Shown piece by piece: positions 2,218 through 32,272 of a stretch of 32,357 bases of DNA (positions are counted from its first letter, which is position 1; every line of letters starts with the position of its first letter). This DNA is from a virus, in the IMG/VR virus record IMGVR_UViG_3300045988_092796, positions 1 through 32,357 of that record; one strand, 5' to 3'. The position numbers and the translations under genes were made by a program. The notes beneath the pieces are model-generated. The model was not told the origin of the DNA, made no database searches, and saw nothing but the letters and a program-made list of their open reading frames with translations.

Positions 2218-2231
2218 TGTGTTTTCTCCTC

Positions 2232-2561: not shown

Positions 2562-3013
2562 TTTTTACTTTCTCCTTTTTTAATCAATTTACTTGGTCCT
2601 TTCGAACCTTCTTTTAACTTAAATTTTTCATGATCAATATTTTGTTTTACAAGATGATCCAGCCCAGGGATTTCAACACCTAAAGCTGAAAGACTGGCTA
2701 GAATACTAGAACCGTAAGCCGCCATCATTGCAACAATGAAGGCATCAACTACAGGCCCCAGATTCATGTATAGGGCGAATGGATAGCCAATTGCTACAAT
2801 TAAAATCATAGCTGTGTGGCTCACTAGCCCTTTTCTCCATTTGCGACTTGAAAACTCGTGATAGGCCCACGCTCTAGATACTCCTATAACGATATCTAGA
2901 GCAACAATGGCCATCAATAGAAATACAATCATGTGTTCATCAATTCCGTGATCATAGAAGTCACGGACTACTTCAATAATTCCAAAGATTCCATCTGGTT
3001 CTTGATACATCAA
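2558..3013 (-). CDS. Holin, multi-TM (phi LC3/TcdE-like family)
   Basis: Three or four predicted TM segments and a charged C-terminal tail. Lies in the lysis cassette with an ATGA overlap onto the next gene. Confidence 0.6.
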   Translation of the reverse strand: MMYQEPDGIFGIIEVVRDFYDHGIDEHMIVFLLMAIVALDIVIGVSRAWAYHEFSSRKWRKGLVSHTAMILIVAIGYPFALYMNLGPVVDAFIVAMMAAYGSSILASLSALGVEIPGLDHLVKQNIDHEKFKLKEGSKGPSKLIKKGESKK

Positions 3014-3028
3014 TCACACTCCTTTCAA

Positions 3029-3700
3029 TTAAGATTCAGGTTGTGCCACTGGTTGGGTCTCAAGGTCTCCTGATGGTTTGTTTTTCTTATCTTCTTTAGG
3101 AACCTCCCAATTGTAGATTGCAAGCTTGCCATTTTGAAAAAGCGGCCCTTTCAAATCTTTGATTGATTCCCCATTGTATGTGAAATCATAGTTGACTTGT
3201 ACAAGGACACGTTTCCCTTCGCTGTATTGTTCAGTGTGGTCTGGATCAATCAAGGTGAAGATATCATGTTCTTTGTAGGTCTTTCCTAATTGGGCAGCTT
3301 CCACAAGTTCAAGCGCTCGTTTGTAAAGAGTGGGATCAAGTGGATTGTCTTGATTGGTAACAGCTACGAGAACCGACCAATCAGCAAGAGCTTTGTTGTT
3401 CTGGATTTGAGCATCTTTTCTCTCATTTTCTTGAGTTAGCTCTTGGATCTTCTGAATGGCTCCATTGTTAGCTTCAATAGATTTGTCAAGCTCTTTCTTG
3501 AGTGCTACGATAGCACCAGATGGATCCAGCTCCATCCGAACGATATTCAGCACAGCCTCAACCAAAGTAGTTTCGTCTTCTTCTGTGCGATTATTTGATA
3601 GGATTTCTTCAAATACTCGGTACGGGAAATCTTGCTTGATTGCCACTTTCGTCGTATTTGTGATGGGATCAAAAAATCTTGATTGTACTTTATAGTCCAT
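3029..3700 (-). CDS. Hypothetical phage protein (between tail and lysis modules), coiled-coil centre
   Basis: Long ORF translationally coupled to its neighbours; no recognisable motif. Confidence 0.5.
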   Translation of the reverse strand: MDYKVQSRFFDPITNTTKVAIKQDFPYRVFEEILSNNRTEEDETTLVEAVLNIVRMELDPSGAIVALKKELDKSIEANNGAIQKIQELTQENERKDAQIQNNKALADWSVLVAVTNQDNPLDPTLYKRALELVEAAQLGKTYKEHDIFTLIDPDHTEQYSEGKRVLVQVNYDFTYNGESIKDLKGPLFQNGKLAIYNWEVPKEDKKNKPSGDLETQPVAQPES

Positions 3701-3921
3701 TAAGCATTTACCTCGTTTTTATTTTTGATTTCTTCGAACAAGTCCTTCAAATCTTTGTCTGAATCAAGGACAGAGCGATAGACTTCAACTTCGTTATAAA
3801 GTTGAGCTGTTTTTTGTTTTTCATCATTCAGTCGGGCTTTATATTCGACCTCATTGAGTGTTTTATCACTGAGTTGTTGATTTAACTCAGTGATGATTGC
3901 TAGTAAGATATTTTCTTCCAT
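3700..3921 (-). CDS. Hypothetical small coiled-coil phage protein
   Basis: ORF with an SD (aaaaaggagaaaacATG); ATG/stop overlap with the next gene. Confidence 0.5.
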   Translation of the reverse strand: MEENILLAIITELNQQLSDKTLNEVEYKARLNDEKQKTAQLYNEVEVYRSVLDSDKDLKDLFEEIKNKNEVNA

Positions 3922-3935
3922 GTTTTCTCCTTTTT

Positions 3936-6900: not shown

Positions 6901-7802
6901 GTAATTTTCTTTCGAATATCCACATTGTATAGCTCATAATAGATTGATGCAGTATCAAAAAGTTTAACAGGCTGGTCAGCTTGACCGATAACATTAATCT
7001 CTAGATTCTCTTCAGGCAGGTCACACAGGCTTGATTGAAAGTATTTCTTACCATATTCTTTCAAATCCTCAAGAGTTTTAACATCCTGATCTTGGACTTC
7101 CATATCATACTCGTAGATATGCTTATACTTATCTACCAGCGTACTATCTACAGTAACTTCAAGGACTTTCTCTTTCTCACCCTCGCCAGAGGCAGTAATG
7201 ACCTTGCGAAAGTGAATCCTTGTTTTTAGGGATTTAGTAGTGGTCGATTCTTTGTACTCGGATAGATTTTTTTTGTACATAAAAAGAGATTGATTTTCAA
7301 TCCCTCCATTTTTTAATAACCTAACTGAGTATTTATCACGGATTAAATCACCACCCCATTGACCAATAATCGAATGTTGACCTTTTGTGAGCGCATCAAT
7401 TACCGATACATTATCAAGTCTAAGAGTATGCTTGTCTTGGATGTCTGAAAAAAATGTAAAAGGACATTCTCTTTTTAGTCCTTCTACCAGCTTATTCATG
7501 ACTGTCGCCCCATTTGCTCGATCTACATCAATCTTACGGACGCTATGACCATTTAGCAAGGTAGCCACTTGATTAGCATAGACAGTAATATACCCATGTC
7601 CCTTTTGGACATCAATGATTACAAATTCTTGCTCTCCAGACAAATCATCAGCAAGAAGATGCACTTCATTTTTTAACGAAGTCCATTTCTCATCACTGAC
7701 TGGAAATTTAAAGGACAATTGATAAGTATTGTTCGCTTCTTGAGTGATGTCATCTTCAAAACAAAAATTAAGAGGGATATTACCCTCTTTTAAATAAATC
7801 AA
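3936..7802 (-). CDS. Tail-associated protein (Tal)/receptor-binding tail fibre, about 1288 aa
   Basis: N-terminus is typical of the prophage-tail 'minor structural protein' family. Follows Dit. Long coiled coil and two beta-rich, CBM-like insertions. Likely TTG start (ggaggtatcgcatTTG) overlapping the Dit stop. Confidence 0.8.
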   Translation of the reverse strand: MIYLKEGNIPLNFCFEDDITQEANNTYQLSFKFPVSDEKWTSLKNEVHLLADDLSGEQEFVIIDVQKGHGYITVYANQVATLLNGHSVRKIDVDRANGATVMNKLVEGLKRECPFTFFSDIQDKHTLRLDNVSVIDALTKGQHSIIGQWGGDLIRDKYSVRLLKNGGIENQSLFMYKKNLSEYKESTTTKSLKTRIHFRKVITASGEGEKEKVLEVTVDSTLVDKYKHIYEYDMEVQDQDVKTLEDLKEYGKKYFQSSLCDLPEENLEINVIGQADQPVKLFDTASIYYELYNVDIRKKITKYSYGPMAKKLKKIGFGKISRSLGGAIGQIINDSVADKIASHDAKVQQLIDNANAEYDKKVKSLEQDITDGIEQAKAKAEVVKEEITAEISEKIKAANKTNKDEIIEEFKARYNGIEVKVEDLKATANGLSEMNTAIQKEMDNFKASTASKFAGISGAQSHYEQSTNKAISDLVKVAQNKADRAYVEQTAQGIKETISNIKIGRRNLIKGTRLFPGIKGVVGEFNGFKVIRSEITQENQKVIDMFVTNTTVPMVGTEYTAIFWARASRNDYRCVLHLFSPNSVTKVVTSTGFVADNLIDGYAIFTITNEWRLYWVKWTQTPVSVPKRVIFGRHGANYGQKKGDWLEICAPAVFEGNMPGDWNEAPEDATSTFQAEFEKTARGLETKITSFESYVQADGTRQETLKKYIEDKTASSLTAFREDIESGYISKSKYEEDSRGITRRFEELKTGGQNLVLNSGDPQNLKNWGEISPDSEPTAKIVTNPLYFDGTRKLLAIINRNSAYSKFLSSHRFNVRQKTTYTVGITLFCSENLKGAELVFFLRRKGSAQLFERFITLLEGVQLPNNEAKRFYFKVDSEIYDEAFLRFKSSGKTEGDESALYIADVDVYEGTIERPWQAAEDEAGKKLETKMAEYSQTIDGELKKLASQIDDTIKKTDVDITPGQITFGVGKTINGKTISSLFVQDPESIALISKLIKVKGDMIVDGSILGRHLKTGTLETGHFKAGSVTSEILAANAVTADKVQVDYALISKLIANQAFIRELTSQRAFITQINSIDFSAERMQGGRLLSINKATDFNLNDGSINLYSNTGVIRRIDDTTASEFIKLNQSGFIGERVRDSKAARIVIGTNHDKTENTENETFAGTRLWSGKSGSENESLYEIVSDRIIFYSNGRYRSPWIIHNNTRDGSSYLIPGNEKGVRHNLGRGDKHFSGAWIDNIFIGKNAYNVGTYLWDLLTCLGQISKYGWDLKNQNIRSHITGVLNKYSFK

Positions 7803-8503
7803 ATGCGATACCTCCAATTCCCTTGAATTTTAATTTTAGATACATTTCCCGTAGTCGTAATCCCGCTGATTCCTGGTTTTAGTTCGAAGAACGGACCTCT
7901 TACACGGATAGTGTTTCGCAGTTGCCCGTTTAACGTATAGACATTTTGCTTACGTTGCCTACAGTCAATTTTAGCCCCACCAGAAAGATTCAAAACCATC
8001 GTCTGATTTCCGATGGTTAACGTTACTTCACCTTGCCCCTCAATCGTGATGATAGGCTCTGAGTAAACCGTTCCTAGATTGGTCACTGTTCCACTGCTAC
8101 CAAAAGCAACCTCTTGAACATTTTTTAAATATCTGAAAGGATGTTGATAGATCTTGATGCTTACAATCCAGTTGTTTTGACCATGAAGCGATATTTCCGA
8201 ATCCAACAAATCAGCATAGTGGATACTATCAGGTTGATAACTAAACTCTAATACATTATCAAGCTTGTTAAATGCATTGATGATTGCTTGAGCGTCCTCG
8301 TATCGTTTTACGAAAACTTTCAACGTCCGCTCATAGCCATCATAAGCACCATCTTCGATATTGTACTGACCATTGATCCCATAGAGTTTCTTTTGTTCAT
8401 CGTAGCGAGGGATAGCTCCTTTAATATCTCCAAAATCAGTTACTACACTATCTGATATAGTGCCAGTATTAAATTTATTGATAATCAGATAATTTACTGC
8501 CAT
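7799..8503 (-). CDS. Distal tail protein (Dit)
   Basis: Position between TMP and Tal. Size is typical and the sequence resembles siphovirus tail-component family proteins. Confidence 0.75.
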   Translation of the reverse strand: MAVNYLIINKFNTGTISDSVVTDFGDIKGAIPRYDEQKKLYGINGQYNIEDGAYDGYERTLKVFVKRYEDAQAIINAFNKLDNVLEFSYQPDSIHYADLLDSEISLHGQNNWIVSIKIYQHPFRYLKNVQEVAFGSSGTVTNLGTVYSEPIITIEGQGEVTLTIGNQTMVLNLSGGAKIDCRQRKQNVYTLNGQLRNTIRVRGPFFELKPGISGITTTGNVSKIKIQGNWRYRI

Positions 8504-11500
8504 TAAATCCCCTCTCTAGCCATGATCTGTCCTTGACGTTGATAAGCATTAATAGCCAATTTCTCACCGTCCAGATACGTGTTAGAGTCTTTATTTGATA
8601 TCTTCTCAAGCCACATATCTAAACTTGACCTTAGAATGGCAATCTCAGATACCATCTTAGACTCTGTGGTTTCATATTTGCTATTTGGCATCTGAAGTGT
8701 AGATGTGATATTGCGATTAAAAGCAGTATCATTTCCAAAATCAAATCCATCTCCAGAAACGGCATCTGAAATCCAACCAGCAACTCCTCCGACCGTCTTC
8801 TGGACACCTTTAAAGCTTTCTTGCAGGGATTCATCAAATCCTCCCATGATTGCCTTACCAGCAGGGATCAGCAACTTACGGTCATAAGAAATCGGTCCTT
8901 TGTGCTTCCGGATCCAGCCAGCGATACCGCCAACAAAATCCTGAATACCACCCCAGACAGCTTTTAGACCGCCAAGGAATCCATTCATGATTGCCTTACC
9001 AGCGCCAGCTAAGTCAATATGAGCCAAGCCACTAAATAGATTTTTAACACCATCGCAAAGATTTTTAACGCCATTTTTCATACCGTCCCAGAACCTTTGC
9101 GCACCAGAAACCAATCCGTCAATTATATTTAAAGTCCCTGTTTTGATGCCATTCCACATGTTTGTTGCTGTGGATTTAATGCCGTCCCAAAGGCCAGCCA
9201 TAAACCCCTTAAACCCATTCCATGCGGCTTGAGCGCCAGCAATAAAACCATCAATAATGGCTTTTATGCCAGAACAGATCCCGTTCCACATGCTTATGGC
9301 TGTAGATTTAATGCCGTCCCAAAGTCCAGATAGAAATCCTTTAAATCCATCCCATACAGCCTGAGCACCAGCAATAAAACCATCAATAATGGCTTTTATA
9401 CCGGATGTGATTAGATTCCACGCAGTCTCAGCTACAGATTTAATTGCATCCCATACACCAGCTAAAAATGTCTTAAGTCCTTCGAAAGCTCCAGTAAAGA
9501 AACCAATGATTGTATTAATAATTCCTGAGAAGAAAGTACAGATACCATTCCAAACAGTTGAAATGGCGTTCTTAATACCATCCCAGATTAATCCCAAATC
9601 CTCACCTAACTTCTTAAAATCAAGTGTTACCAAATCAATGATGAACAGGACCGTTCCTAATACAATACTTTTAATCAACTCCCAAGCACCAGTAAAAATA
9701 GACTTAATCCCTTCGAATACCTGAGAAATACCATCTTTCATGCCATTCCAGATGCTCATGAAAGTATCGATGAAAGGTTGCACAATCGATAAAACTGAGC
9801 TGGTGATTGTGGTCCATGCTGTAGTTGCTAAACTAGTGATTGATTCCCACAATCCAGAGAAGAAATCGGAAATCCCTTGCCAGGCAGATTTAATCCCCTC
9901 AATCGTTCCGTTCCAGGCATTCGAAGCTCCATCAGAGATACCACTCCAGAGGCCAGAGAAGAATTCCTTGATTCCTTCCCATGCACCCTTGATGCCATCA
10001 ATGACACCATTCCAAACTGATACCACTCCATTCCAGAGATTGATAGCTCCATCAGAAATTCCTTTCCAAAGACCAGAAAAGAATTCAGCAATCCCTTTCC
10101 ATGCGGATTTTATCCAGGATACAAAACCACTCCAAATCTTACGACCTGTCTCGGTTTGAGTAAAGAACCAAGTTAAACCAGCTGTTAGTGCAGCAATAGC
10201 TGTGACAATTAATCCAATAGGATTTGCAGATAAGACTGTGTTGAAAATTCCAAACGCTCCACTTGCTCCCATTGTTGCAGCTGCATTAGCAGCCTCAGCA
10301 GCAGTTAAGGCATTAGTTCTGACGAATTGAGCCAACATCAACCCATTTGTTATTGCGAGTATCGCTTTTCTGGCAGTCTCAATTCCTTTTATAACTCCCA
10401 TCACTACTTTATAGCCAGTCCATGCAGTTGTGATTCCCACAACTGAAGCCTTCAAGGCATCTAATGCAGCAGGATTGCCTTTTAGCCAGCTCGTAAAATC
10501 TTTTAATTTTGCAGATGCACTCCTCAAAAATTTAGTAAGACCTTCAAATGCTGAAGCTATCAAGTTCACACTTTGTTCACTTCCACCAATTCCAAGCAGA
10601 TCACTGACAAAACTACCTACAATACCAGCGATATTTCCGATGGTGGCCCCGATATTCTCAAAGGTCACACGGATATTTTCCCCAATATTTACAATGCTAC
10701 GAGCTGTCTTTTCATCGATACCCAAGTAGCTTTTTAAGAAGTCAACATTGTCCATCTTGTTCATGGAACCGAATATCATATCGAACAATGTATTTGCAAT
10801 TGCGCTAATATCAGCAAAAGTGTTATACACCCATTCAAGTATTGGCTCAGCAACGCCCTCACCAAAAACAGCAGTAAGGCCATCCTGCAAGATTCCATAA
10901 ATAAGATGAGGAATCCCTTTCAAGACATTCCCGATCATAGGGATGAGATTTCCAACTAAAAATGTCTTCGCTGTTTCGTATAAACTATGAAGTGATGGTC
11001 CAATATCTTTCCCAAGGGCCAAATTACCCAAAACATTTTGAGCAGCAGCTTTCATCGCATTAAACGACCCTGTAAAGGTAGTTGATGCTTCGACAGCTGT
11101 CGCTCCAGTAATTTTTAAATCACCTTGGATGGCGTGAATTGCCTGATAGACGTCTGACAGATTATTAATATCATACTTGACACCCGTCAGCTTAGTAGCA
11201 TCAGCTAGCAAGCGCTCCATCTCGGTCTTGGTACCACCGTACCCGAGCTTAAGGTTATCCAACATCGTATAATTCTGCTTAGCAAATCCTTGATAAGCAT
11301 CTTGTATACGATCCATGGATGTACCCATCTTATTGCTATTATCTGCCATATCAATCATGGCCATGTTAGCCACATCTGCAGCCTTCCGAGTATCGCCACC
11401 CAAAGATTGCAACAAACTTGCACTAAAGCCAGTCACGTTTTCCATGTAGGCATTGGCTGAAAGACCTGTCGTCTTATATGCTTCGTTAGCATATTTTTTG

Positions 11501-17791: not shown

Positions 17792-19187
17792 GGCCTTCAA
17801 TTCCTTTCATTTGCTTAGAACCAGCTGTGTTAATGAAGCTCAATAAATTATGGAACTCAGGATTATCTTTCAATGAATTTGAATCGATGATATAACTATC
17901 CACTTCATATTTTCCATGTCTGGTACTATGTGTTTTTTTACACTTGAATCTTTCTTTCAGAACAACATTATCTAATGGTTTAAACCCGTTTGATATTCTG
18001 GATTGCAACTCCAAATATTCAAAACGTCCTTCATTTTTTCTTATAACAGCCGCATGCCTACCTGTTGCCAAGTAATATTCATTCCCATCTTCTACCTTTT
18101 TCAACAATTCTCTGACTGCAGTAAAGTCATTCGTGTTTTTAACGACATGCATTTTAACACCAGGAAGATTTCCTATCATTTGGATTCTACTATCTCTAGA
18201 GAAGAAGTCACAGCTTTTACCTCCTCGAAAATCTAAAACAGTATAACCGCCTTTATTTCCAATATACGCAAATGCTGCTGACGAACATGACCCTTTTGTT
18301 TTATCACCGCCACTAACAGCAGTGATGATTTGTTCCTCAGTTAGTTTTTTACGACTTTTTTTGATAGGATTTGAGGAAATTCCTTCTTGAAGCGCAAGTT
18401 TTCTCACTTCGCTCATTTGAGATTTTCCATTGATATTTTTTCTTGCTTCTATCTTATCACTTTCATCTGTTTTTCTCCAAATTTTGCTCCAAATGTCTTT
18501 AACTTTCCCGCTTTTTGGGTCATAGTCAACAATACAACGACAATGTTGATGCCTCCTATAAACATCTCTTGGAACTCTTGGATATTTATAGCTACCTTGT
18601 ACTTCTTGACACCAATCACAGCAATGAAAATAAGATTTTCTAACAATTTCAGGTTGTAATCCAGATTTGTAATGGAACTCCGCATTTTTTTGAATACTAT
18701 CATCAATGATAGATTGAGAAAAATTAACGATAGGCTCACCAAACAACCAACTGACATCTTCAAATTTTTCTTCAGATGCCAATCGATTAACAATGCCAGC
18801 AATTCTATCCTGATTCAATTCAGGAACTTGCACTTTCAAACTGATTTTTGCATCTGTATTCAGTTTCTTCTGTACATCTCTCGTATAACCGCTTATTATC
18901 TCATAATTACGCCCTAGAACGTCCGATAACAACCGTTGAGCGATATTGTAATACATTTTTCCATCTGGCAATTTATCAGCGATTAAAGAAGCTCCTAGAG
19001 CCTTAGAAAGAATTTCTCCGACCTCAATAGCAAACTCATTTGCTGTTTTGTAGGTTGCTTTTTTAGCTTCCAACGTGGCAAAAGCATTTCTGACGATCTC
19101 ACTTTTCCCATAATCTCTCTCGAATCTCTCTTGAACTTCTTGAAGAATAGCAGGTAAAACATCATGTTCCATCTGATTCACCTTCAT
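17781..19187 (-). CDS. MuF/SPP1 gp7-like head morphogenesis protein fused to an unassigned C-terminal domain of about 190 aa (Cys301/His378 candidate catalytic pair)
   Basis: MuF signature HCCDWCQEVQGSYKYP...RRHQHCRC at residues 188-218. It is followed by a Lys-rich linker and an extra domain (GSCSSAAFAYIGNKGG ... ATGRHAAVIRK). An alternative start at 19172 has a better SD. Confidence 0.75.
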   Translation of the reverse strand: MKVNQMEHDVLPAILQEVQERFERDYGKSEIVRNAFATLEAKKATYKTANEFAIEVGEILSKALGASLIADKLPDGKMYYNIAQRLLSDVLGRNYEIISGYTRDVQKKLNTDAKISLKVQVPELNQDRIAGIVNRLASEEKFEDVSWLFGEPIVNFSQSIIDDSIQKNAEFHYKSGLQPEIVRKSYFHCCDWCQEVQGSYKYPRVPRDVYRRHQHCRCIVDYDPKSGKVKDIWSKIWRKTDESDKIEARKNINGKSQMSEVRKLALQEGISSNPIKKSRKKLTEEQIITAVSGGDKTKGSCSSAAFAYIGNKGGYTVLDFRGGKSCDFFSRDSRIQMIGNLPGVKMHVVKNTNDFTAVRELLKKVEDGNEYYLATGRHAAVIRKNEGRFEYLELQSRISNGFKPLDNVVLKERFKCKKTHSTRHGKYEVDSYIIDSNSLKDNPEFHNLLSFINTAGSKQMKGIEGHEK

Positions 19188-20430
19188 TCACAATAGGCAC
19201 AGCAGACATATCACCTGCAATTCCTGTAAGATCACGAATGGTTTCAGCGTTAATATAACCAGGTAATGCCTGATTCAATTTCAGGGCACCATCGCCAACC
19301 ATGGTCATCATATTAGCATCTGCTTCAAATAATGGTTCCCATTTAACTGTTGTTCTCACAAATTCACTTCTTACGTAATGAAATTCATCACGCAAACAAG
19401 CAGCAACATAAGCAACATTTAAAAATCCAGCGCCTAAAGACCTTTGTGCCTTCCGTCCTGCCAAGCGCAAATTCTCATGACTAGCCTTGATAGCTTCAAC
19501 TGATGATGGATTGTCTGACACAAACCCTAAATCATCTAATGTCAAGCCCATTTCGCCAGCAAATCCAGCAGCAGCTGTTCTTAGCTGTTCGGTAAAAGGA
19601 GACATGCTGGCAGTGCTAAACTGGCCAACGTTTGGCTTTTCCCCATTATCACTAGCCGAAATCGTCAACAGGCTTGATACAGTCGCTTGCCATTTTTCCA
19701 AAGGCTCTGCATCAGGATCCAGTCCAAGAATATACTTTTGAGGCCATGAGTAGAACTCTGCCGTAATATCCGCCCGTTCCAAAGTACGCTTAGCATATTT
19801 TTGATAATACATGCCAGCCCTCGTGATACGACTACGGCCAAACGGTCTTACCGCATCAGGCCGATGAATCACAGGAACCAGCAGTGGAATATTCGTTGGA
19901 TTGCTGATCGAGTAGGTTTGACCATCTTTCGGGATGAAATGGGTTGCATTTGGCTCAAAGTAAGCCTCTAAAGTTGCCCGACCATAATCGTCCCTAGCCA
20001 ATACCGCATAACCTTCAACAAGCAATCCAGTAATAGGATCAATTACTCCAGTCGCATTACTCGATTCAATGACTTGTAATCTCACCTCATCATCTTCGTC
20101 TTTCGAAATATAGATAAAACTACACGATCCAATCAGTGCTGATAGAATAGTGCTATCAAAGAAGATATCAGGATTGTTCCGATTGAAGATTTCCATAACT
20201 TCAAAATCATCATTGGCAAATTCTCTAAAAATCAAACGATCTGCAAGACTATCTACTCCTTTTGCAGCCCAACCCAAAGTGGACCGATACTGCGCCCTGA
20301 TATTTGGAGGAATCGTTATTCCTATCGACGCTTCATAATATTTCATGGCGTAATGCTTGTATCTCAGATTAACTCTTAACCTACAAGATTCAAGTTTTCT
20401 TCTCAGATAGTCAATCCCTCTTAATTCCAA
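19162..20430 (-). CDS. Portal protein, SPP1 gp6-like
   Basis: Size and motifs (RPFGRSRIT) fit. Followed by the MuF gene. Start chosen at the TTG preceded by aaaggagactgaa; the track's longer N-terminus has no SD. Confidence 0.75.
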   Translation of the reverse strand: MELRGIDYLRRKLESCRLRVNLRYKHYAMKYYEASIGITIPPNIRAQYRSTLGWAAKGVDSLADRLIFREFANDDFEVMEIFNRNNPDIFFDSTILSALIGSCSFIYISKDEDDEVRLQVIESSNATGVIDPITGLLVEGYAVLARDDYGRATLEAYFEPNATHFIPKDGQTYSISNPTNIPLLVPVIHRPDAVRPFGRSRITRAGMYYQKYAKRTLERADITAEFYSWPQKYILGLDPDAEPLEKWQATVSSLLTISASDNGEKPNVGQFSTASMSPFTEQLRTAAAGFAGEMGLTLDDLGFVSDNPSSVEAIKASHENLRLAGRKAQRSLGAGFLNVAYVAACLRDEFHYVRSEFVRTTVKWEPLFEADANMMTMVGDGALKLNQALPGYINAETIRDLTGIAGDMSAVPIVNEGESDGT

Positions 20431-20454
20431 TTCAGTCTCCTTTCGTCTTGAGAT

Positions 20455-20533
20455 TTGGCGCGAGAAAAAATGTACAGTGACGGCGTGAAGCTCGGCCGAG
20501 CCTCTGGGGAGGGGGTAACCCCCCACCTTTGGC
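20455..20533. other. GC-rich island with a 12-bp palindrome gctcggccgagc (20490-20501) and a G5-taa-C6 hairpin (20511-20524); cos/pac candidate
   Basis: Read directly. It contrasts sharply with the flanking AT-rich DNA and lies between the HNH and portal genes. Confidence 0.4.
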
Positions 20534-20669
20534 AATTTTAAAAAATTTTAAAATTTTTATTTTTTCTCAAAAATCTTCAAAATTATTATTTTTTTACTTT
20601 TTTAAAAAAATTACTATTTTTTATTTTTTTAATTATTTCTATGATTTTTAAAAATATTTTTAAAATCAT
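20534..20669. repeat. Noncoding block of about 135 bp that is almost pure A/T, with phased A- and T-tracts and a 29-bp near-palindrome (20641-20669)
   Basis: ttttaaaaaattttaaaatttttatttttt... No ORF on either strand. Confidence 0.6.
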
Positions 20670-25578: not shown

Positions 25579-26063
25579 CACTCCACCTCCTCTACTTCTA
25601 TGCCTGGGCAATCAAACACCCAGCCAAAGCCGGCTTCTTCTAATTGTTTTCTAGTAAATCTTTCAAGATCGCCATACACTTTTTCAAAATCAAGACGATC
25701 CTCACCCTGTCTGTACACAGTTTTCAACGACTGTCCATTGCACAATATCACTTCATATCGCTTCTCTTTCTCAACCTCGTAGCCATAAACAAAAGCTAAA
25801 TGCAACTTTCTGAGATTATCTTCTGTCGCATATACCCAATCATAAATTTCACTTGGTACTGAGTCGTAATTTAACCCAAACAGGCCACTTTTTAGTTTAC
25901 TCAACCAATCCGCCACAAATTGCGGTACGACTGGTTTTTGTGGCTCCGAATTAGTCAATTTTTCATATTCTCTGATAAAAATTTTTACGTTTGTGAAACT
26001 TGGGAAATATCCAAAAATTTGCATTCGGTTCATCAATGCCTTAACCAATTTTTTTTTATTCAT
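25578..26063 (-). CDS. DUF1642-like streptococcal/lactococcal phage protein
   Basis: The PVVPQFVADWL segment resembles the family (recalled from memory). SD gaggagatggaaaATG. Confidence 0.5.
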   Translation of the reverse strand: MNKKKLVKALMNRMQIFGYFPSFTNVKIFIREYEKLTNSEPQKPVVPQFVADWLSKLKSGLFGLNYDSVPSEIYDWVYATEDNLRKLHLAFVYGYEVEKEKRYEVILCNGQSLKTVYRQGEDRLDFEKVYGDLERFTRKQLEEAGFGWVFDCPGIEVEEVE

Positions 26064-26322
26064 TTTCCATCTCCTCAATCAACCAATCCAGATTTTTTCT
26101 GGCCTTCTTCAAATCTTCCAGTCCGTTCTTCGCTTGGAATCGCAATAGATACTTAATTGCATTGCCCCAATAAAATCCTTGCACGGCTGTTAGATTACCT
26201 GCGAAGTTTCGGACAACGTCTATTGCCTCAAGACCAAACTTGCCCTTGTAGTGATTCGGATTATTGACCTTGTCTTCTTCAATCATTTCATCAAGCACTT
26301 GTTCGTATGATTTTTCTTTCAT
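26056..26322 (-). CDS. DUF3310-like phage protein
   Basis: NPNHYKG...IEAIDV...GNAIKYLLR motif. SD taaggagaataaaATG. Confidence 0.6.
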   Translation of the reverse strand: MKEKSYEQVLDEMIEEDKVNNPNHYKGKFGLEAIDVVRNFAGNLTAVQGFYWGNAIKYLLRFQAKNGLEDLKKARKNLDWLIEEMENE

Positions 26323-26332
26323 TTTATTCTCC

Positions 26333-26590
26333 TTACTTACGACACCCGCTGAGATCTTCTTCATCCCAGTTTCTCATTTTAAAAGTCCGTTTTTTGCGTT
26401 CTTCTTGGCTACGTAGGGCAGCTTGACGCACGGCATATTCTTGTGCTGCCAAAACATACATAGCCTGCAGATCAAGCAACTCTTCTGCTTCACGCTTTTT
26501 CTCAGCCTTTCGCCATTCTAAATATTGGCAAAAAGCTCCCATCATAAAGAACATCATCAACGTAAAAATTCCACCTAATACTTCACTCAT
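26333..26590 (-). CDS. Hypothetical membrane protein
   Basis: N-terminal TM followed by a basic, helical tail. Confidence 0.4.
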   Translation of the reverse strand: MSEVLGGIFTLMMFFMMGAFCQYLEWRKAEKKREAEELLDLQAMYVLAAQEYAVRQAALRSQEERKKRTFKMRNWDEEDLSGCRK

Positions 26591-26864
26591 TGTTTAAATC
26601 AATCCTTTCTCTGATCAATTTATCATCTTGCTCAAGATATGAAATCCTGATAGCATTGTTTCTCATGCTATCTCTGTTGTCAGTTATTTGAGATCGAAGC
26701 TCTTTAATTTGATGATTTCGATCATCTTCAATCTTTACTACGAAAACAACTGCAACAAGTAAGCAGAGACTCAAACCGATAACTATCAATTTCAAATCTG
26801 CTAATGTCCTACTCAAATACACATTCTCATGTTTTAACAAATGTATCTCATCTCTAATACTCAA
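26583..26864 (-). CDS. Hypothetical TM + coiled-coil protein (TTG start)
   Basis: SD aggagggcaggttt upstream of the TTG. Confidence 0.4.
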   Translation of the reverse strand: MSIRDEIHLLKHENVYLSRTLADLKLIVIGLSLCLLVAVVFVVKIEDDRNHQIKELRSQITDNRDSMRNNAIRISYLEQDDKLIRERIDLNNE

Positions 26865-26897
26865 AAACCTGCCCTCCTGCTCAATTCATCCTCTCTT

Positions 26898-27164
26898 TTA
26901 AATTACAATATTTTCTTGAATGAATGTATCTAATTCATTCTTATCAATACGCTTCGTCCCATCGATTTTATAAAGATTTAAACCCATCTTTATCCACTTT
27001 CTGATGGTGTTAGAACTGCAATCAGCATAGTATGCAGCACTCTCAAGCGATAGCCAACGTTTTTCTGCCACCTCTTGGTCCAAGAATTCAGTGAACGATT
27101 CTTTAAATTGAGTTCGTACCGCTGTTCTTATTCCATTTTCAAATTCTTCACTTAGAATATTCAT
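26898..27164 (-). CDS. Excisionase-like/MerR-type HTH DNA-binding protein
   Basis: WLSLESAAYYADCSSNTIRKWIKMGL. Start taken at the ATG with ggagttgaag as SD. Confidence 0.45.
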   Translation of the reverse strand: MNILSEEFENGIRTAVRTQFKESFTEFLDQEVAEKRWLSLESAAYYADCSSNTIRKWIKMGLNLYKIDGTKRIDKNELDTFIQENIVI

Positions 27165-27195
27165 CTTCAACTCCAACTTATGATATAATGTAAAT

Positions 27196-27242
27196 GTTTT
27201 TATTTTTGTTGAGCACTTCACTTGTTTTGTGAAGTGTTTTTT
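27196..27242 (+). ncRNA. Candidate antisense small RNA of about 47 nt (own extended -10 at 27181-27189, intrinsic terminator at 27214-27242)
   Basis: Plus strand reads TGaTATAAT, then cacttcac-ttgtttt-gtgaagtg followed by tttttt. No plus-strand gene lies nearby. Confidence 0.4.
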
Positions 27243-27243
27243 A

Positions 27244-27672
27244 TTATCCAACCAAACTCATCTGTCCATTGCGAGCTTTGATTTCAAGCTTAGTATTCGC
27301 TGATGGCTCCCAGCTGTTCCAGTAGTCAAATGCTTGCTCTTCATCCTTACGCTTCAATAAGTCGTAGCGAGGGATACGGAAGTAGTCCTTGAAGTCTTTA
27401 GCAGCCTGAGCAAATACAGATTGTGCAAAATGTCGGTCACGGTATGCCTGGCTGTCTTTCCCACCAAGCAAAGCCACGACTTTCTTCTTACGCAATTTTT
27501 CCAATGCTAGACAAACCGAAGGGTTGACTGGTTGCTCATTTTTTAAATAATCAACATCTATGGCTAAAGTTTCTTGATTTTGTTTTAACTCTTTTTGAGT
27601 CTGCAAGACTTGAATTAAAATATCTTCCTGAGTAAGTTCGTTTTGATTGACTTGCATAATTTCTGATGTCAT
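27244..27672 (-). CDS. ORF6C-domain-like early phage protein
   Basis: The C-terminal half resembles the ORF6C domain (recalled from memory). Confidence 0.45.
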   Translation of the reverse strand: MTSEIMQVNQNELTQEDILIQVLQTQKELKQNQETLAIDVDYLKNEQPVNPSVCLALEKLRKKKVVALLGGKDSQAYRDRHFAQSVFAQAAKDFKDYFRIPRYDLLKRKDEEQAFDYWNSWEPSANTKLEIKARNGQMSLVG

Positions 27673-28577
27673 AGTAATTCTCCTTCTAAAATGTCACTTT
27701 CTTTGCGAATGTCGTTCAGGTCGTTGAAGAAACGAAGGCCACGGCTAATAAAACTATCAAATTCATTTCTTATAATTCCATCTGCTTTCAGGACTTTTTC
27801 TTCGTCTGCATAGATCAGACCTCCCATACTTGCTAAAAAGTCATTTCCCTTTTGAAGTAGGTTTGTGATATTCTTGTAAGCCGAGATTTGCTTCTGTACA
27901 CTATTGAGTTGCCCTTGCGATTCTTCAATCGCTCGTGTTAATTCATCGTACTGAGCAGATTTCTTGTCTACCTCTTCCCTCTGGGCCAGTGTGTCAGCAA
28001 GTTGCTTTTCGATAAATTCAGAGCGTTCTTCCATCGCCTTCACACTTTTTGAGAGTTCCTTATTTTTTTCTAGCAGCTGCTTGTTAAGGTCCTGTGTAGC
28101 CTTGTAGTCGTCCGGAATTACTTCCTTGATGGTCTCTTTCACTTCTACTTTTGAAGACTTGATTTTCTCATTTTCAGCTTTTAAAAGCTCATTTGCTTTT
28201 TGGCTAATTTTTAGTTTATTTTTTAGTTTTTGCAATTCTCTGACGGTCGGACTGTCCCCTTGCTCAATCCTGTTAATTTGAGCTTTTTGTTCGTCCTCTG
28301 GAAGAGTTGCAATCAAGTAAAGTGCGTTAATCCCTAAATTCTGTGACGTCACAGAATATGGAAGTTCTTTTGCTACTTTCATAAACTGGTTAGCGACTGT
28401 CTGGCTAAACTCTATTTTCTTCAACCATTCCATAAACTGTCCATGTGCCAAATCATTTTGTTTTACATGATTTAATCGTCTGCCGATTTCCCAAATGGAC
28501 TGACCAGCTATTTGCTTGTGGTGGCTGATTTCAAGCTCAATCTGAGTTAAATTATTTGATAATGCTACTTCGTTCAC
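27669..28577 (-). CDS. DUF3102-like N-terminal domain + long coiled coil (GTG start)
   Basis: IAGQSIWEIGRRLNHVK...HGQFMEWL...ANQFMKVA pattern. Confidence 0.5.
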   Translation of the reverse strand: MNEVALSNNLTQIELEISHHKQIAGQSIWEIGRRLNHVKQNDLAHGQFMEWLKKIEFSQTVANQFMKVAKELPYSVTSQNLGINALYLIATLPEDEQKAQINRIEQGDSPTVRELQKLKNKLKISQKANELLKAENEKIKSSKVEVKETIKEVIPDDYKATQDLNKQLLEKNKELSKSVKAMEERSEFIEKQLADTLAQREEVDKKSAQYDELTRAIEESQGQLNSVQKQISAYKNITNLLQKGNDFLASMGGLIYADEEKVLKADGIIRNEFDSFISRGLRFFNDLNDIRKESDILEGELL

Positions 28578-28598
28578 ACGCTATTTCCTTTCTAAATT

Positions 28599-28607
28599 TG
28601 GTATAAT
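28599..28607 (+). promoter_or_regulatory. Extended -10 promoter TGgTATAAT for the plus-strand DUF4145-like gene
   Basis: tttggtataataaa, 28 nt upstream of the ATG at 28635. Confidence 0.55.
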
Positions 28608-28634
28608 AAAATAAAAACGATTGGATTTTTTATT

Positions 28635-29315
28635 ATGAAACTTAATGTTGAGATTGCTTTTAGAGATAGACGAAGAATCGTTACAATTGACACACCTTCA
28701 AAATGTCCTCACTGCGGTAGAACCATGTCTCCTCAACATGTTGGACAAAGTACAAGCTCTGAAACAACAAGTTTTTTAGATAACGGGAGATTTGCCGTTA
28801 TTTTCCGATGCTCTTTTGAAGATTGTTTGAAATATTTTGTGATAGAATATATCAATGATGATTTTGATACATCAACGGTAAATTATACCTACCGCCCTCA
28901 AATCAAGGTTAAACTCCCTGAAAACATAGAAAAAGTTTCTCCTGTTTTTGTCGAAATCTATTCTCAAGCAACCGTTGCTGAATCTGAGGTATTGAATCAA
29001 ATTGCAGGCGTCGGCTATCGTAAAGCAGCAGAATTTCTCATAAAAGATTACGCGATATCTAAAAATAAAGACGACGAAGAAAAAATCAAAACAATTATGC
29101 TTGGGCAAGTAATTGCTACATACTTAAACGATTTTCCGAAAATTCAAGCCTTGGCAAAATCTGTTGCCTGGATCGGTAATGATGAGACTCATTATGTCCG
29201 CAGGCATGATGGTAAAGATATCGAGGATTTAAAGAAGTTCATTCTATCAGCAGCTCAATTTATCGCAGCAGATTACGACGCAGATGAAGCATTGTCTTTC
29301 ACTTCTCCCAATTGA
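28635..29315 (+). CDS. Zinc-ribbon + DUF4145-like domain protein (candidate prophage-encoded defence/exclusion factor)
   Basis: CPHCG...C-x4-C at the N-terminus. The C-terminal half has GYRKAAEFLIKDY and WIGNDETHY (GN-x3-H) motifs, like DUF4145 as recalled from memory. It is the only plus-strand gene inside the minus-strand early operon. Confidence 0.6.
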   Translation: MKLNVEIAFRDRRRIVTIDTPSKCPHCGRTMSPQHVGQSTSSETTSFLDNGRFAVIFRCSFEDCLKYFVIEYINDDFDTSTVNYTYRPQIKVKLPENIEKVSPVFVEIYSQATVAESEVLNQIAGVGYRKAAEFLIKDYAISKNKDDEEKIKTIMLGQVIATYLNDFPKIQALAKSVAWIGNDETHYVRRHDGKDIEDLKKFILSAAQFIAADYDADEALSFTSPN

Positions 29316-29407
29316 GAGATCTTAATATCCAACTCATCAAACTTCTCAGCAATATATGTCACAGTCCTCAGTATTTCATTGAGGGCTGTTCTTTCTAGTT
29401 CGTTCAT
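29273..29407 (-). CDS. Hypothetical 44-aa early protein
   Basis: SD taggaggggtagaATG. Its 3' end overlaps the convergent gene 28635-29315 by 43 nt. Confidence 0.45.
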   Translation of the reverse strand: MNELERTALNEILRTVTYIAEKFDELDIKISQLGEVKDNASSAS

Positions 29408-29417
29408 TCTACCCCTC

Positions 29418-29609
29418 CTACTCAATCCCATAATCTTCAATAACCTGAAGAATGAAACTGTTCGCTCGTGGACCTTTTGTCGTTCCACTTAAAATATTTG
29501 TAACTTCCTGTCGTTTAAAACCATAAGCGACCGCTAGAGTTGATTTTTTAATGCCTTTCTCTTTCAAAAAAGTATTAACCTTTTCACGACCGTTTGCGAT
29601 ATCTGGCAT
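29418..29609 (-). CDS. Cro-like HTH protein
   Basis: The segment GIKKSTLAVAYGFKRQEVTNILSG is HTH-like. Divergent from the repressor gene. SD aggagggaacgtatATG. Confidence 0.7.
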   Translation of the reverse strand: MPDIANGREKVNTFLKEKGIKKSTLAVAYGFKRQEVTNILSGTTKGPRANSFILQVIEDYGIE

Positions 29610-29623
29610 ATACGTTCCCTCCT

Positions 29624-29682: not shown

Positions 29683-29711
29683 TTGACAACTCACACCAAA
29701 TCGGCTAAAAT
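29683..29711 (+). promoter_or_regulatory. Candidate repressor-side promoter TTGACA-17-TAAAAT
   Basis: Read directly. The spacer contains cacaccaaat (29692-29701), which is repeated at 29855-29864. Confidence 0.5.
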
Positions 29712-29907: not shown

Positions 29908-30255
29908 ATGTTTGAGACATTTGAAAAAATTAAAGAATTAGCAAAAAAGCGTGGAAAAGCTCTTGGACAAGTCGAAGAAGACTTAGGTTATGGCAGAAAT
30001 ACACTGTATAAGATAAAAAACTCTACGCCAAATGCTGAGCGTATCGCAGAAATTGCTAACTACTTCAATGTGTCCACCGACTACTTATTAGGACGCACTG
30101 ATAATCCGAATATTGTAAAAAATGGTGATGCTTCTGCACCATTAGACCTCAGAGATATTGCTGCACAATCAATGTTATTTGACGGGAAGCCCCTGTCAGA
30201 TGAAGACATCGATTTTATCACAGCGGTCTTGGAGGCACATTTAAAAAATAAATAG
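29908..30255 (+). CDS. XRE/CI-like prophage repressor
   Basis: HTH LGYGRNTLYKIKNSTPNAERIAEIANYFNVSTDYLLGRTD. Followed by an ImmA-like gene. Confidence 0.8.
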   Translation: MFETFEKIKELAKKRGKALGQVEEDLGYGRNTLYKIKNSTPNAERIAEIANYFNVSTDYLLGRTDNPNIVKNGDASAPLDLRDIAAQSMLFDGKPLSDEDIDFITAVLEAHLKNK

Positions 30256-30266
30256 AGGTGCTAATT

Positions 30267-30653
30267 ATGACTGTGCAAGAATTGTGCGCTGTTGAAGGCG
30301 TTAACTTGTGCTACTTCGATGGGGAAGAATGGCATAGCCAAGGATTTTACAATCCAGTTCTTAATGTCCTGGCTTTAGATGTACGCTTATCTGATGATGA
30401 CCAGAAAAAAGTGGCTCTACACGAGCTTGGACATAGAGAACATCTGCCATGTAATTACCAAGCGAATAGGGAGAAATGTGAGTTACAAGCGAATAGAAAC
30501 ATGATACATCATTTGCTTGAAGCAGAACTCAAAGAGCTAGATGATGTATCAAATTTTAATTACGTTCGTTTCATGGAAACTTACAAATTAAAAACCATCG
30601 CTGATGAAGAAATTGTAAAAGAGGAGTTTTATAATTTAATTAATAATATTTAA
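30267..30653 (+). CDS. ImmA/IrrE-like zinc metalloprotease (anti-repressor protease)
   Basis: HELGH motif and pairing with the XRE repressor. SD agaggtgctaattATG. Confidence 0.7.
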   Translation: MTVQELCAVEGVNLCYFDGEEWHSQGFYNPVLNVLALDVRLSDDDQKKVALHELGHREHLPCNYQANREKCELQANRNMIHHLLEAELKELDDVSNFNYVRFMETYKLKTIADEEIVKEEFYNLINNI

Positions 30654-30664
30654 GGGAGATTATT

Positions 30665-31036
30665 ATGAGTTTTAAAGGATTTCTAAAAGCAAAAACAGTT
30701 GGTGAATTTCTACAAGCCAGGAAAGACCCTGAATTGATGAAAGAGATTGAAAATCGATCTGTAAAAACTGTATTGGAAAATTCTGTTGAATTTACCGAGC
30801 AAAACAACGCTTTGAAAAAACAAAAAATGTTAGAAAAAAATGCTATCAAATGTCCTCATTGCAAGAGCAAAAATGTAAGCTTTATGCAGCAAGGTAAAAA
30901 GGCTTTTTCTGTTGGAAAAGCTGTTGGGGGCGCTGCTTTAACAGGTGGAATCGGTACTCTTGCAGGATTTGCTGGAAAAAAAGGAAAGAAACAATGGCAT
31001 TGCCAAGATTGTGGTAATGTATTTGAAACAAAATAA
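30665..31036 (+). CDS. Split zinc-ribbon protein with an internal glycine-zipper segment (lysogeny-module accessory gene)
   Basis: CPHC ... GKAVGGAALTGGIGTLAGFAG ... CQDC. Located between the repressor/ImmA pair and int. Confidence 0.6.
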   Translation: MSFKGFLKAKTVGEFLQARKDPELMKEIENRSVKTVLENSVEFTEQNNALKKQKMLEKNAIKCPHCKSKNVSFMQQGKKAFSVGKAVGGAALTGGIGTLAGFAGKKGKKQWHCQDCGNVFETK

Positions 31037-31055
31037 ACTAGGAGAAAATAAATAA

Positions 31056-31089
31056 CCTACACTCGAAATTTGGCGATCTAGAGTGTAGG
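31056..31089. repeat. 9-bp-stem inverted repeat cctacactc-N16-gagtgtagg between the zinc-ribbon gene and int
   Basis: Read directly. No T-run follows it, so its function is unclear. Confidence 0.4.
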
Positions 31090-31168
31090 TGTATCGATGA
31101 AGTGTAAAACAGGCATTAAAAAGCCCTTTTTACTATGCCTATTTTACCAATAAATGAGGTAAAAATCA

Positions 31169-32272
31169 ATGATCAAGAAATATAAAAAAGGTGACGGCTT
31201 TGCTTACTATTTTAAAGCATACCATGGGATTGATCCTTTGACTGGTAAGAAGATAGTAACTCTTAGGCGTGGTTTTAAAACTGAGCGTGAAGCTAGACTG
31301 GCTGAAGCTAAGTGTTTAGCTGATTATGAGAAGAAAACCTTTAGAAGCAGAAATACAACTACTACTTTTAATCAGGTATATGAAACCTGGAAAGCGCATT
31401 ATAGAAATACCGTAAAAGAATCAACCTACGTTAGCCAAATTGACAAAGCAGATAGACTTATTATCCCTCATTTTGGAGATAAGCCTATAAATAAAATAAG
31501 TTTGACCATGTGTCAAACTCAGGTTAATAAATGGGCTGAAGAATATAAACGATTTTTTGGAATTATCAGCATAACTAATCAGATTTTTGATTATGCAATA
31601 TCTATGGAATTGATTGATAGCAATCCAATGAAAAAGACACTGAAGCCTAAACGACAAAAAAATAATACAGATGAACTTGAAAAGTTCTACAACAAAGAAG
31701 AACTTAAGGAATTCTTTAAAATCGTTAAAGGCTTCGACGATAATGAAATGCTGACGTATTTTAGATTACTAGCTTTTACTGGAATGCGAAAGAATGAAAT
31801 TAGCGCTCTAAGATGGTCTGATATCGATTTTAAAAAAGGACAGATTACTGTCAATCAAACCTTGGCCAAGGGTGAAGATAATAAACTTATCTTTCAGACT
31901 CCAAAGACAAAAAAGAGTGCCCGAACAATTACCCTCGATTCAAAAACAATCAAGGTTTTAAAAGATTGGCACAAGTATAGTACAAAAGGACTTCTTTTTA
32001 AAAATGAGAATGGAGAACCTAAGAGTGTTGTCCATGTCAACAATATGTTGAACAGAATCTGGAGAAAGTATCCTGATTTTAAACGTATCACCCCACACGG
32101 ATTCAGACACACCCACTGCTCCCTATTGTTCGAGGCTGGAGCAACTATTAAAGAGGTTCAGGAACGATTAGGGCATGAAAACATACAAACAACGATGGAC
32201 ATATATGCTCATGTTACCCAAAAAGCAAAAAATGAGGTTGCTGACAAATTCGCTTCATACATTGGTTTTTAA
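31169..32272 (+). CDS. int: Tyrosine integrase
   Basis: Full-length (367 aa), with RKNEISALRW, HGFRHTH and LGHENIQTTMDIYAHV motifs. Adjacent to the att core. Confidence 0.95.
   Translation: MIKKYKKGDGFAYYFKAYHGIDPLTGKKIVTLRRGFKTEREARLAEAKCLADYEKKTFRSRNTTTTFNQVYETWKAHYRNTVKESTYVSQIDKADRLIIPHFGDKPINKISLTMCQTQVNKWAEEYKRFFGIISITNQIFDYAISMELIDSNPMKKTLKPKRQKNNTDELEKFYNKEELKEFFKIVKGFDDNEMLTYFRLLAFTGMRKNEISALRWSDIDFKKGQITVNQTLAKGEDNKLIFQTPKTKKSARTITLDSKTIKVLKDWHKYSTKGLLFKNENGEPKSVVHVNNMLNRIWRKYPDFKRITPHGFRHTHCSLLFEAGATIKEVQERLGHENIQTTMDIYAHVTQKAKNEVADKFASYIGF

Follow-up and report, generated by a model that had tools for sequence, protein, structure and literature searches.

A lysogeny-strand zinc-ribbon and DUF4145 gene lying antisense in the early lytic region of a Streptococcus prophage: a moron with a candidate role in phage defence

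Why would a prophage carry a gene that points against its own early lytic operon, and what could such a gene do? The question is raised by the IMG/VR virus record IMGVR_UViG_3300045988_092796, analyzed here from position 1 to position 32,357 (this whole stretch of 32,357 nucleotides, or nt, is called the window hereafter). The window is a complete Streptococcus prophage of the siphophage type, and the open reading frame (ORF) at 28635-29315, which encodes a zinc ribbon followed by a DUF4145/HEPN-like domain, is the sole credible plus-strand gene among its lytic genes, to which it lies antisense. An initial annotation made from the letters alone had already noticed this placement among the early lytic genes and had called it the only plus-strand gene in about 9 kb. 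The map of ORF strands bears out the placement and shows that the distance was understated, as all credible genes from about 260 to 29609 are on the minus strand according to ORF and family searches of the window. We lean, with some reserve, towards the gene being a lysogen-expressed phage-defence gene of the abortive infection (Abi) type, a reading that draws on its sequence and on that of its relatives. The elements of the locus are the following.

28577-29415 (839 bp): accessory cassette with the promoter, the zinc-ribbon and DUF4145 gene, and the small convergent ORF, delimited by blastn against phage Javan242
28599-28607, plus strand: predicted extended -10 promoter TGGTATAAT, from the sequence and its conservation across loci
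28621-28626, plus strand: weak Shine-Dalgarno site TTGGAT, from the alignment of upstream regions, with GATTGGAG in relatives
28635-29315, plus strand: coding sequence of the zinc-ribbon and DUF4145/HEPN-like protein (ATG start, 226 amino acids, PHROG 1305)
28635-28880, plus strand: N-terminal beta-rich Cys4 zinc-ribbon domain, amino acids 1-82 (C24, C27, C59, C64), candidate sensor
28926-29312, plus strand: C-terminal helical DUF4145/HEPN-like domain, amino acids 98-226, candidate effector
29013-29039, plus strand: GYRKAAEFL motif, amino acids 127-135
29169-29195, plus strand: WIGNDETHY motif, amino acids 179-187
29273-29407, minus strand: ORF of 44 amino acids (MNELERTALNEILRTV..., PHROG 4488, E = 1.9e-21), sharing 43 nt with the 3' end of the DUF4145 gene
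29361-29389, plus strand: hairpin followed by a T-rich tail (to 29399), from the terminator scan, inside the convergent small ORF

Can this gene be expressed independently of its surroundings? The initial annotation had assigned it its own extended -10 promoter. There is no usable -35 upstream of TGGTATAAT, and because of this a consensus promoter scan omits the site. Within the window, the motif TGNTATAAT is not rarer than expected by chance (3 found vs. 1.8 expected). However, in 19 of the 22 homologous loci, TGnTA(T/A)AAT precedes the start codon by 31-44 nt. Among them are loci with proteins of just 32-37% identity (SM1 gp14 and Javan446), as well as loci of Enterococcus, Aerococcus, two uncultured Firmicutes, and the Fusobacterium phage phiHugo. 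At the level of sequence, it is this cross-locus conservation alone, and not the statistics of the window, that settles the reality of the promoter, as the annotation had it. At the other end of the cassette, the folding energy of the hairpin is -17.0 kcal/mol on the plus strand vs. -10.5 kcal/mol on the minus strand. In 13 loci the hairpin is kept, as the substitutions allow G-U pairing and, in locus L015, a C-G pair has become T-A by compensatory change. Across these loci the plus-strand fold (-11 to -17 kcal/mol) is always the more stable one (minus strand, -6 to -14 kcal/mol), the two being near equal just in L015. From these patterns, the segment 29361-29399 is likely to be the intrinsic terminator of the cassette mRNA.

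The cassette is polymorphic between related phages. Javan242, a phage of S. gordonii and the closest one to the window, aligns to 26000-28576 at 88% and to 29416-29612 at 98.5% (blastn), and it has 20 bp, with clean junctions, in place of the 839 bp that separate these segments. The locus hence combines a conserved promoter, a conserved plus-strand hairpin, an orientation opposed to that of the surrounding genes, and presence/absence polymorphism, so that on sequence criteria the zinc-ribbon and DUF4145 cassette is a prophage moron. Its GC content gives no signal of foreign origin (0.36 vs. 0.37-0.38). Contigs of human oral metagenomes also have a gene call for the identical 226-amino-acid protein, in an unchanged gene context, where the prophage is integrated beside the genes of ribosomal proteins L21 and L27.

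What kind of protein does this moron encode? The initial annotation knew of no characterized single-gene system combining a zinc ribbon with DUF4145. This is outdated, since PD-T7-4, a one-protein system described as "Zn finger-HEPN" (PMC9519451), was later characterized (Nature 2026) as RAZR, the ring-activated zinc-finger RNase of E. coli UMB1727 (PDB 9Y9C; PMC13017515; PMC9519451). In RAZR, an N-terminal Cys4 zinc finger is followed by a DUF4145/HEPN domain at the C-terminus, and the protein acts by abortive infection. It becomes active when 24 copies assemble around a ring made of either the T7-type portal or the Erf-like protein Gp77, and it then cleaves single-stranded RNA non-specifically. 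Residues R146 and H154 are essential, the change of R146 to Ala abolishing defence. The zinc finger, which is the most variable region, sets the specificity, and no partner is needed (PMC13017515).

Homologues of this system occupy the same slot as the gene of the window. In Javan197, SM1, Javan446, and phiHugo, the gene in this slot follows cro at a distance of one or two small genes and is on the lysogeny strand, and many loci in Firmicutes genomes share this strand pattern. Slot and promoter are also found again in Enterococcus and Clostridia. Among 149 neighbour proteins at 28 Firmicutes loci, the commonest are helix-turn-helix (HTH) proteins of the Cro/CI type (19 proteins), followed by ORF6C, Bro-N, Peptidase_S24, Peptidase_M78, recombinase, and terminase. 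In phage SM1 (L003), three antisense cassettes follow each other at 5441-8439. Their genes are gp14, which is of the window type, gp11, a protein of 219 amino acids that matches a PADLOC TIR effector model (2e-17) and PHROG 3634, and gp7, a homologue of PD-T7-4/RAZR. All three are preceded by the junction TTCCTTTCTAAATTTGGTATAAT, and the 3' end of each overlaps with a small ORF of the lytic strand. Read on the other strand, the left half of the junction is the ribosome-binding site of the next lytic gene. In the window, too, the promoter overlaps, on the opposite strand, the ribosome-binding site of the minus-strand gene starting at 28577. From its gene content, the SM1 segment resembles a modular array of defence genes within the early operon. 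The presence of gp7, gp11, and gp14 under one type of promoter suggests that the slot is used for defence-type genes.

The CxxC...Cx4C, GYRKAAEFL, and WIGNDETHY motifs reported by the initial annotation are all in place, and the zinc-ribbon and DUF4145 architecture that it proposed holds. The match to Pfam DUF4145 (PF13643) passes the gathering cut-off marginally (24.3 vs. 23.1 bits, E = 3.4e-5, amino acids 122-202), and SM1 gp14 stays under it (20.4 bits). The match to PHROG 1305 spans nearly the whole protein (E = 5.7e-57, amino acids 15-225 vs. profile positions 10-220 of 226). Neither NCBIfam nor PADLOC has a family that matches the protein, and we treated a Phage_CII match (E = 0.02) and matches to C2H2 zinc fingers in the PDB as noise. 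The AlphaFold2 model (mean pLDDT of 95) consists of a beta-rich part (amino acids 1-82), with six strands and a short helix (amino acids 46-49), a linker, and a helical part (amino acids 98-223). The zinc ribbon has a weak profile match to that of Rpb9 (E = 0.023). When the model was compared with the PDB using Foldseek, the best matches were HEPN proteins: 2q00 (TMt 0.67, probability 1.0), 1wol, 4nqf, 2hsb, Csx1, and Csm6', all of them non-significant (E >= 0.17).

Conservation is unevenly spread over the two domains. The zinc ribbon is the most variable part, with 24% identity to the window protein vs. 47% for the C-terminal domain, and its four cysteines (C24-x2-C27 and C59-x4-C64) are invariant or nearly so (C59 in 85 of 86). 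In 86-136 relatives, R129, E133, D183, and H186 are invariant and W179, G181, N182, E184, Y187, and F134 nearly so, whereas other positions of the two motifs, such as A131-A132 and I180, vary. Further invariant or near-invariant positions are K137, R189, and K200. The annotation's motifs implied a canonical HEPN site, of which one half stands: the histidine of GN-x3-H is invariant, but the HEPN arginine is replaced by Ala, Thr, Val, or Ser.

This missing arginine sets the family apart from RAZR. With both proteins aligned on GN-x3-H, CR146IVGNQAVH154 of RAZR corresponds to VA178WIGNDETH186 of the window protein, so that H186 falls on H154 and A178 on R146; upstream, GYRKAAEFL aligns with RRCLQ of RAZR-type proteins. 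The RAZR residues were taken from aligned fragments obtained via SM1 gp7. An arginine occupies the position of R146 in 112 of 113 RAZR-type sequences and in none of 138 representatives of the window type, which have A, T, V, S, or I. Gp7 provides the bridge between the two types. It has a CxxC...CxxC zinc ribbon, a DUF4145 match of 54.6 bits, and the motif LRKLGNIGAHP, and it matches the RAZR chain 9y9c_OA both as a single sequence (E = 6.5e-7) and as a gp7-like profile (5.8e-13). When the window family was aligned to this gp7-like profile using hhalign, the probability was 88.9% (E = 2.4e-6) over 140 columns covering the zinc ribbon, the R-x3-[EQ]-x3-[KR]-D helix, and GN-x3-H. Together with the membership of gp7 in PHROG 1305 (E = 8.6e-45), this alignment over both domains shows remote homology of the window type to RAZR-type proteins. 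Yet the two families separate well, as each hidden Markov model gives 140-366 bits to its own members and at most 18 bits to those of the other family. In summary, sequence comparison indicates that the window protein is not a RAZR orthologue and that it belongs to a distinct sister family, with remote homology and a rebuilt effector motif. We discarded the Foldseek search against the PDB as a test of similarity to RAZR: 9y9c is outside the top 50 for the window model and equally so for the model of gp7, a control that does match 9y9c by sequence, and chains with two-letter identifiers may be missing from that database. A plasmid search for the E. coli RAZR with a Pseudomonas member of the window family gave no enterobacterial matches.

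How could such a protein work in a lysogen? As an anti-phage factor, the moron cassette would be self-contained and act through a single protein. In the lysogen, this protein would be produced from the cassette's -35-independent promoter, which points along the lysogeny strand, and its variable N-terminal Cys4 zinc ribbon would recognize a protein of an incoming phage. Activation of the conserved DUF4145/HEPN-like domain would follow, by analogy through a rearrangement of oligomers, and the domain would damage RNA, so that translation stops and the infection is aborted. Upon induction of the prophage, transcription from the cro promoter would run antisense through the whole gene and lower its expression. 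We found no terminator-like site on the minus strand between 29418 and 28577 in the terminator scan, and lytic transcripts should therefore read through the cassette. The transcript from the cro side reaches the DUF3102 gene, the first lytic gene beyond, after about 840 nt of cassette, of which about 680 nt are antisense to the DUF4145 coding sequence.

The case for a defence function is made by several lines taken together: the content of the SM1 slot, the architecture, the homology to RAZR, and the variability of the putative sensor domain. The moron character, the conserved slot beside the genetic switch, the autonomy of the gene outside Firmicutes, and a small protein (PHROG 14088, see below) that is paired with RAZR-type and window-type genes alike also speak for it. 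The abortive-infection role put forward by the initial annotation is still the best reading of the locus, given that the same slot and promoter in SM1 carry a PD-T7-4/RAZR homologue and a TIR-effector-like gene. That the window protein acts precisely as RAZR does, by cleaving RNA when triggered by a ring, is an analogy that we hold to be possible but rather doubtful.

Several observations weigh against the defence reading. The position equivalent to R146 is never an arginine in 86 window-type loci and is A178 in the window protein itself. Given that the family is devoid of RAZR's catalytic arginine, its chemistry may differ and RNase activity is not assured. R129, R189, or the D183/E184 pair may have taken over the role of the missing residue, or the activity may be another one. 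The PADLOC PD-T7-4 model (PDLC04109) does not match the window protein, SM1 gp14, or a Pseudomonas member at E <= 1, nor any of 136 family members at E <= 0.01, whereas it finds the RAZR-like controls gp7 (1.5e-15), phi891591_0053 (5e-67), and Javan263_0009 (8e-71). Likewise, the RAZR chain 9Y9C gave no match at E <= 10 by phmmer or by hmmsearch with the family profile, in a PDB sequence library that does include 9y9c_OA (Gp77 retrieves 9y6u and 9y9c from it). The DUF4145 score, barely over its cut-off, points in the same direction. The initial annotation had also suggested a survey of homologues for enrichment in defence islands; outside Firmicutes we saw none. The neighbours there are heterogeneous, and housekeeping genes make up the majority of them, beside a few resolvases, ResIII, an AbiEii-like ATPase, McrBC, and a methylase. 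Finally, the self-silencing by antisense transcription is something we infer from the orientation only.

If the gene is not a stand-alone defence factor, the small ORF at its 3' end could be the key to it. The zinc-ribbon and DUF4145 protein would then be a toxin and the convergent small lytic-strand ORF its antidote, sparing the phage's own lytic cycle (its portal ring) or stabilizing the element. Both genes lie within the cassette that is missing from Javan242, and a small lytic-strand ORF overlaps the 3' end at every Streptococcus locus examined. The 44-amino-acid ORF of the window is truly coding, judging by its variation among 13 loci, which falls mostly at third codon positions, and it is also called as a gene on metagenome contigs. 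A pairing was also found for another small protein, PHROG 14088. It has 50-80 amino acids and the motif G-x-G-T-x3-P-x-R-x-V-x-QYW-x-L-x-G, and its ORF is convergent with, and overlaps or abuts, the 3' end of a zinc-ribbon and DUF4145 gene in 8 of 8 distinct phage records. It is paired with window-type genes at nine genome loci (L028, L029, L031, L034, L037, L039, L040, L044, and L059). When 24 IMG/VR loci were fetched with the PHROG 14088 protein alone (an alignment of four sequences), 22 had the pair, 19 with a RAZR-type gene and 3 with a window-type one. Examples of the pairing, with the small ORF given first, are:

SM1 (L003): 8415-8627, PHROG 14088, with 7759-8439, zinc-ribbon and DUF4145 gene
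L088: 2492-2644, PHROG 14088, with 2641-3360, zinc-ribbon and DUF4145 gene
L089: 2465-2620, PHROG 14088, with 2617-3321, zinc-ribbon and DUF4145 gene
L097-L120: PHROG 14088 with zinc-ribbon and DUF4145 gene, around 2001-2850

Since PHROG 14088 stands beside both types, RAZR-type and window-type genes are interchangeable in one two-gene design, which supports a biology shared by the two. PHROG 14088 is a candidate dedicated partner, perhaps for self-immunity or regulation, and we know of no description of it, nor of such a partner described for RAZR. The small ORF of the window, however, is of the PHROG 4488 type. We rejected this type as a dedicated partner of DUF4145, because it is also found beside a gene without this domain (SM1 gp10/gp11) and, in phiARI0031 and MissC, in the absence of any antisense gene. 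Moreover, family members outside Firmicutes stand alone, and RAZR needs no partner (PMC13017515). For the gene of the window, we consider the toxin and antidote arrangement quite improbable.

Slightly less probable still is that the protein is a nucleic-acid-binding regulator of the lysis-lysogeny switch, or that convergent transcription itself damps early lytic expression and so stabilizes lysogeny. The gene is always just after cro and faces the early promoter, it encodes a zinc ribbon, and PHROG 1305 bears the label "DNA binding protein", for which an experimental basis was not found in the literature searched. Yet the near-identical phage Javan242 does without the gene, the family is abundant outside phage contexts in many phyla, and its most conserved part is an enzyme-like motif rather than the zinc ribbon. 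The conserved hairpin should also end the transcript before it reaches cro. Very improbable, lastly, is a catalytically inactive HEPN-like decoy that poisons RAZR-type defences of the host or of competitors, or a protein that does no more than bind and sequester. In favour of this, no member of the family has the canonical HEPN arginine, and the architecture, possibly with the oligomer interfaces, is common to the RAZR-type proteins that co-occur with the window type in SM1 and IPP16. Against it, W-[IL]-G-N-D-E-T-H-Y-x-R, R129, E133, and K137 show little or no variation across phyla, which suggests an active site, and the family is too widespread in bacterial chromosomes without phage context for counter-defence.

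The abortive-infection reading remains the preferred one, and the spread of the family gives it a wider reach. At E <= 0.001, we found 2,239 representatives of clusters at 50% identity, nearly all of 215-250 amino acids and aligned over their whole length. Firmicutes, Bacteroidota, Proteobacteria, Acidobacteriota, and Saccharibacteria are among the phyla in which the family occurs. Beyond Firmicutes, the gene is found by itself and in unrelated surroundings, as one expects of an autonomous one-gene unit. The most far-reaching version of the reading, which we regard as unlikely on present evidence, is that of a pan-bacterial sister family of RAZR (more than 2,000 clusters at 50% identity) with a rebuilt effector site and a chemistry, substrate, or activation geometry unlike those of RAZR, whose prophage members would be kept from firing on the assembly intermediates of their own phage by antisense read-through, by a small lytic-strand protein, or by both. 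Such a self-immunity arrangement has not been described for RAZR.

If the family is an active defence, thousands of immune genes in Firmicutes, Bacteroidota, Proteobacteria, and other phyla are at present unlabelled, including those in prophages of S. pneumoniae, S. pyogenes, S. suis, and oral streptococci, and the PADLOC PD-T7-4 model does not see them. Its highly conserved motif without arginine would be a natural experiment on the requirements of HEPN-type sites. The design of the streptococcal cassette, with its fixed -35-independent promoter, its lysogeny-strand gene, and the small ORF that overlaps this gene from the lytic strand, serves RAZR-type, TIR-type, and window-type genes alike. 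Hence, it could be a handle for finding prophage-borne defence genes, and it could help to ask how the ring-protein sensor of a prophage is kept from responding to that same phage.

The rest of the prophage is organized as follows.

1480-2244, minus strand: endolysin, lytic region
19162-20535, minus strand: portal, lytic region
Minus strand: terminase, replication genes, and ORF6C antirepressor gene, lytic region
27669-28577, minus strand: DUF3102 gene, first lytic gene beyond the read-through of the cassette
29418-29609, minus strand: cro-like HTH gene, first gene of the lytic operon (matches to HTH_26 and PHROG 1337, 98.5% identical to Javan242_0045)
29683-29711, plus strand: switch promoter towards cI, from the promoter scan (11/12 matches)
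29848-29820, minus strand: divergent switch promoter towards cro, from the promoter scan (10/12 matches)
29908-30255, plus strand: cI, lysogeny module
30258-30653, plus strand: ImmA, lysogeny module
30665-31036, plus strand: zinc-ribbon protein, lysogeny module
31169-32272, plus strand: integrase, lysogeny module

The lysogeny module (29908-32272) is on the plus strand throughout, and its gene at 30665-31036, between ImmA and integrase, may be a second lysogen-expressed accessory gene. Its protein of 123 amino acids has two CxxC pairs around a Gly-rich hydrophobic stretch (GKAVGGAALTGGIGTLAGFAG) and matches PHROG 6837 and a PaaD-type zinc ribbon; the interval between ImmA and integrase is a classical slot for superinfection exclusion. 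In the lytic part, the plus-strand ORF at 1058-1369, between the endolysin gene and a PHROG 1529 gene, is the only other one of at least 100 amino acids that does not overlap a longer minus-strand ORF. It has no PHROG match and could be another moron or a spurious ORF. Inside the DUF4145 gene, the minus strand has a promoter-like site at 28846-28875 (TTGATG, an 18-nt spacer, TATATT, and an upstream TG; 9/12 matches), which, if real, could drive the downstream lytic genes without read-through from cro. Javan242 (L001) carries at 3310-3977 a 668-bp insert between cro and cI, opposite position 29612/29616 of the window, with two small ORFs of 43 (plus strand) and 60 (minus strand) amino acids, which makes the switch region a second hotspot of insertions and deletions between the two phages. 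In another phage context, that of the Aeribacillus phage AP45 (L004), the family member and a gene with a NERD (nuclease-related) domain, at 3961-4872 and 4869-5642, are co-directional with an overlap of 4 nt, which suggests a two-gene operon.

How does the gene compare with known systems? The validated one-protein E. coli defence DS-38 (WP_001313577, from DefensePredictor; PMC13092281) also combines HEPN and zinc fingers. We rejected it as a true relative because it has 366 amino acids and the reverse order of domains, with an N-terminal HEPN carrying RNRVVH and a C-terminal array of several zinc fingers; the GNDETHY motif was not found among the DefensePredictor table entries listed. Within DUF4145 (PF13643, HEPN superfamily), the R-x(4-6)-H motif is conserved in about 80% of the members, and fusion to a zinc ribbon is among the described architectures (Anantharaman et al. 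2013, PMC3710099). The window protein is helical over the corresponding part of its model, and its family belongs to the minority without the arginine.

With RAZR, the window protein has in common its nature as a single protein of about 220 amino acids, with a Cys4 zinc ribbon, a linker, and a DUF4145/HEPN-like helical domain. The CPHCG knuckle and the GN-x3-H motif with its invariant histidine are also common to both, and the two types are alike in the variability of their zinc ribbon and in their carriage on mobile elements. They differ in the effector motif, W-[IL]-GNDETHY-x-R in the window type and R-x2-GN-x2-(A/V)H in the RAZR type. Close parallels are the PD-T7-4 homologues SM1 gp7, phi891591_0053, and Javan263_0009, which occupy the antisense early-region slot of streptococcal prophages just as the window gene does and match its product in size and architecture and, in SM1, also its promoter junction. 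Unlike the window protein, they keep the canonical arginine and score 55-236 bits on the PD-T7-4 model. Also, genes of the gp7 type are paired with the PHROG 14088 small ORF, whereas that of the window is paired with one of the PHROG 4488 type.

A functional parallel may be drawn with BstA and its aba element, reportedly described by Owen et al. in 2021 as a prophage-encoded defence with self-immunity. Like the window gene in the reading preferred here, BstA is a one-gene abortive-infection factor near the prophage immunity region that must not fire in the phage's own lytic cycle. The proteins are unrelated, and the protection proposed for the window prophage would come from antisense read-through and possibly from the small lytic-strand ORF. 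In conclusion, the combination of a zinc ribbon with DUF4145 is known from RAZR, and what the window adds to it is a very large and unannotated sister family without the arginine, found in a conserved prophage cassette.

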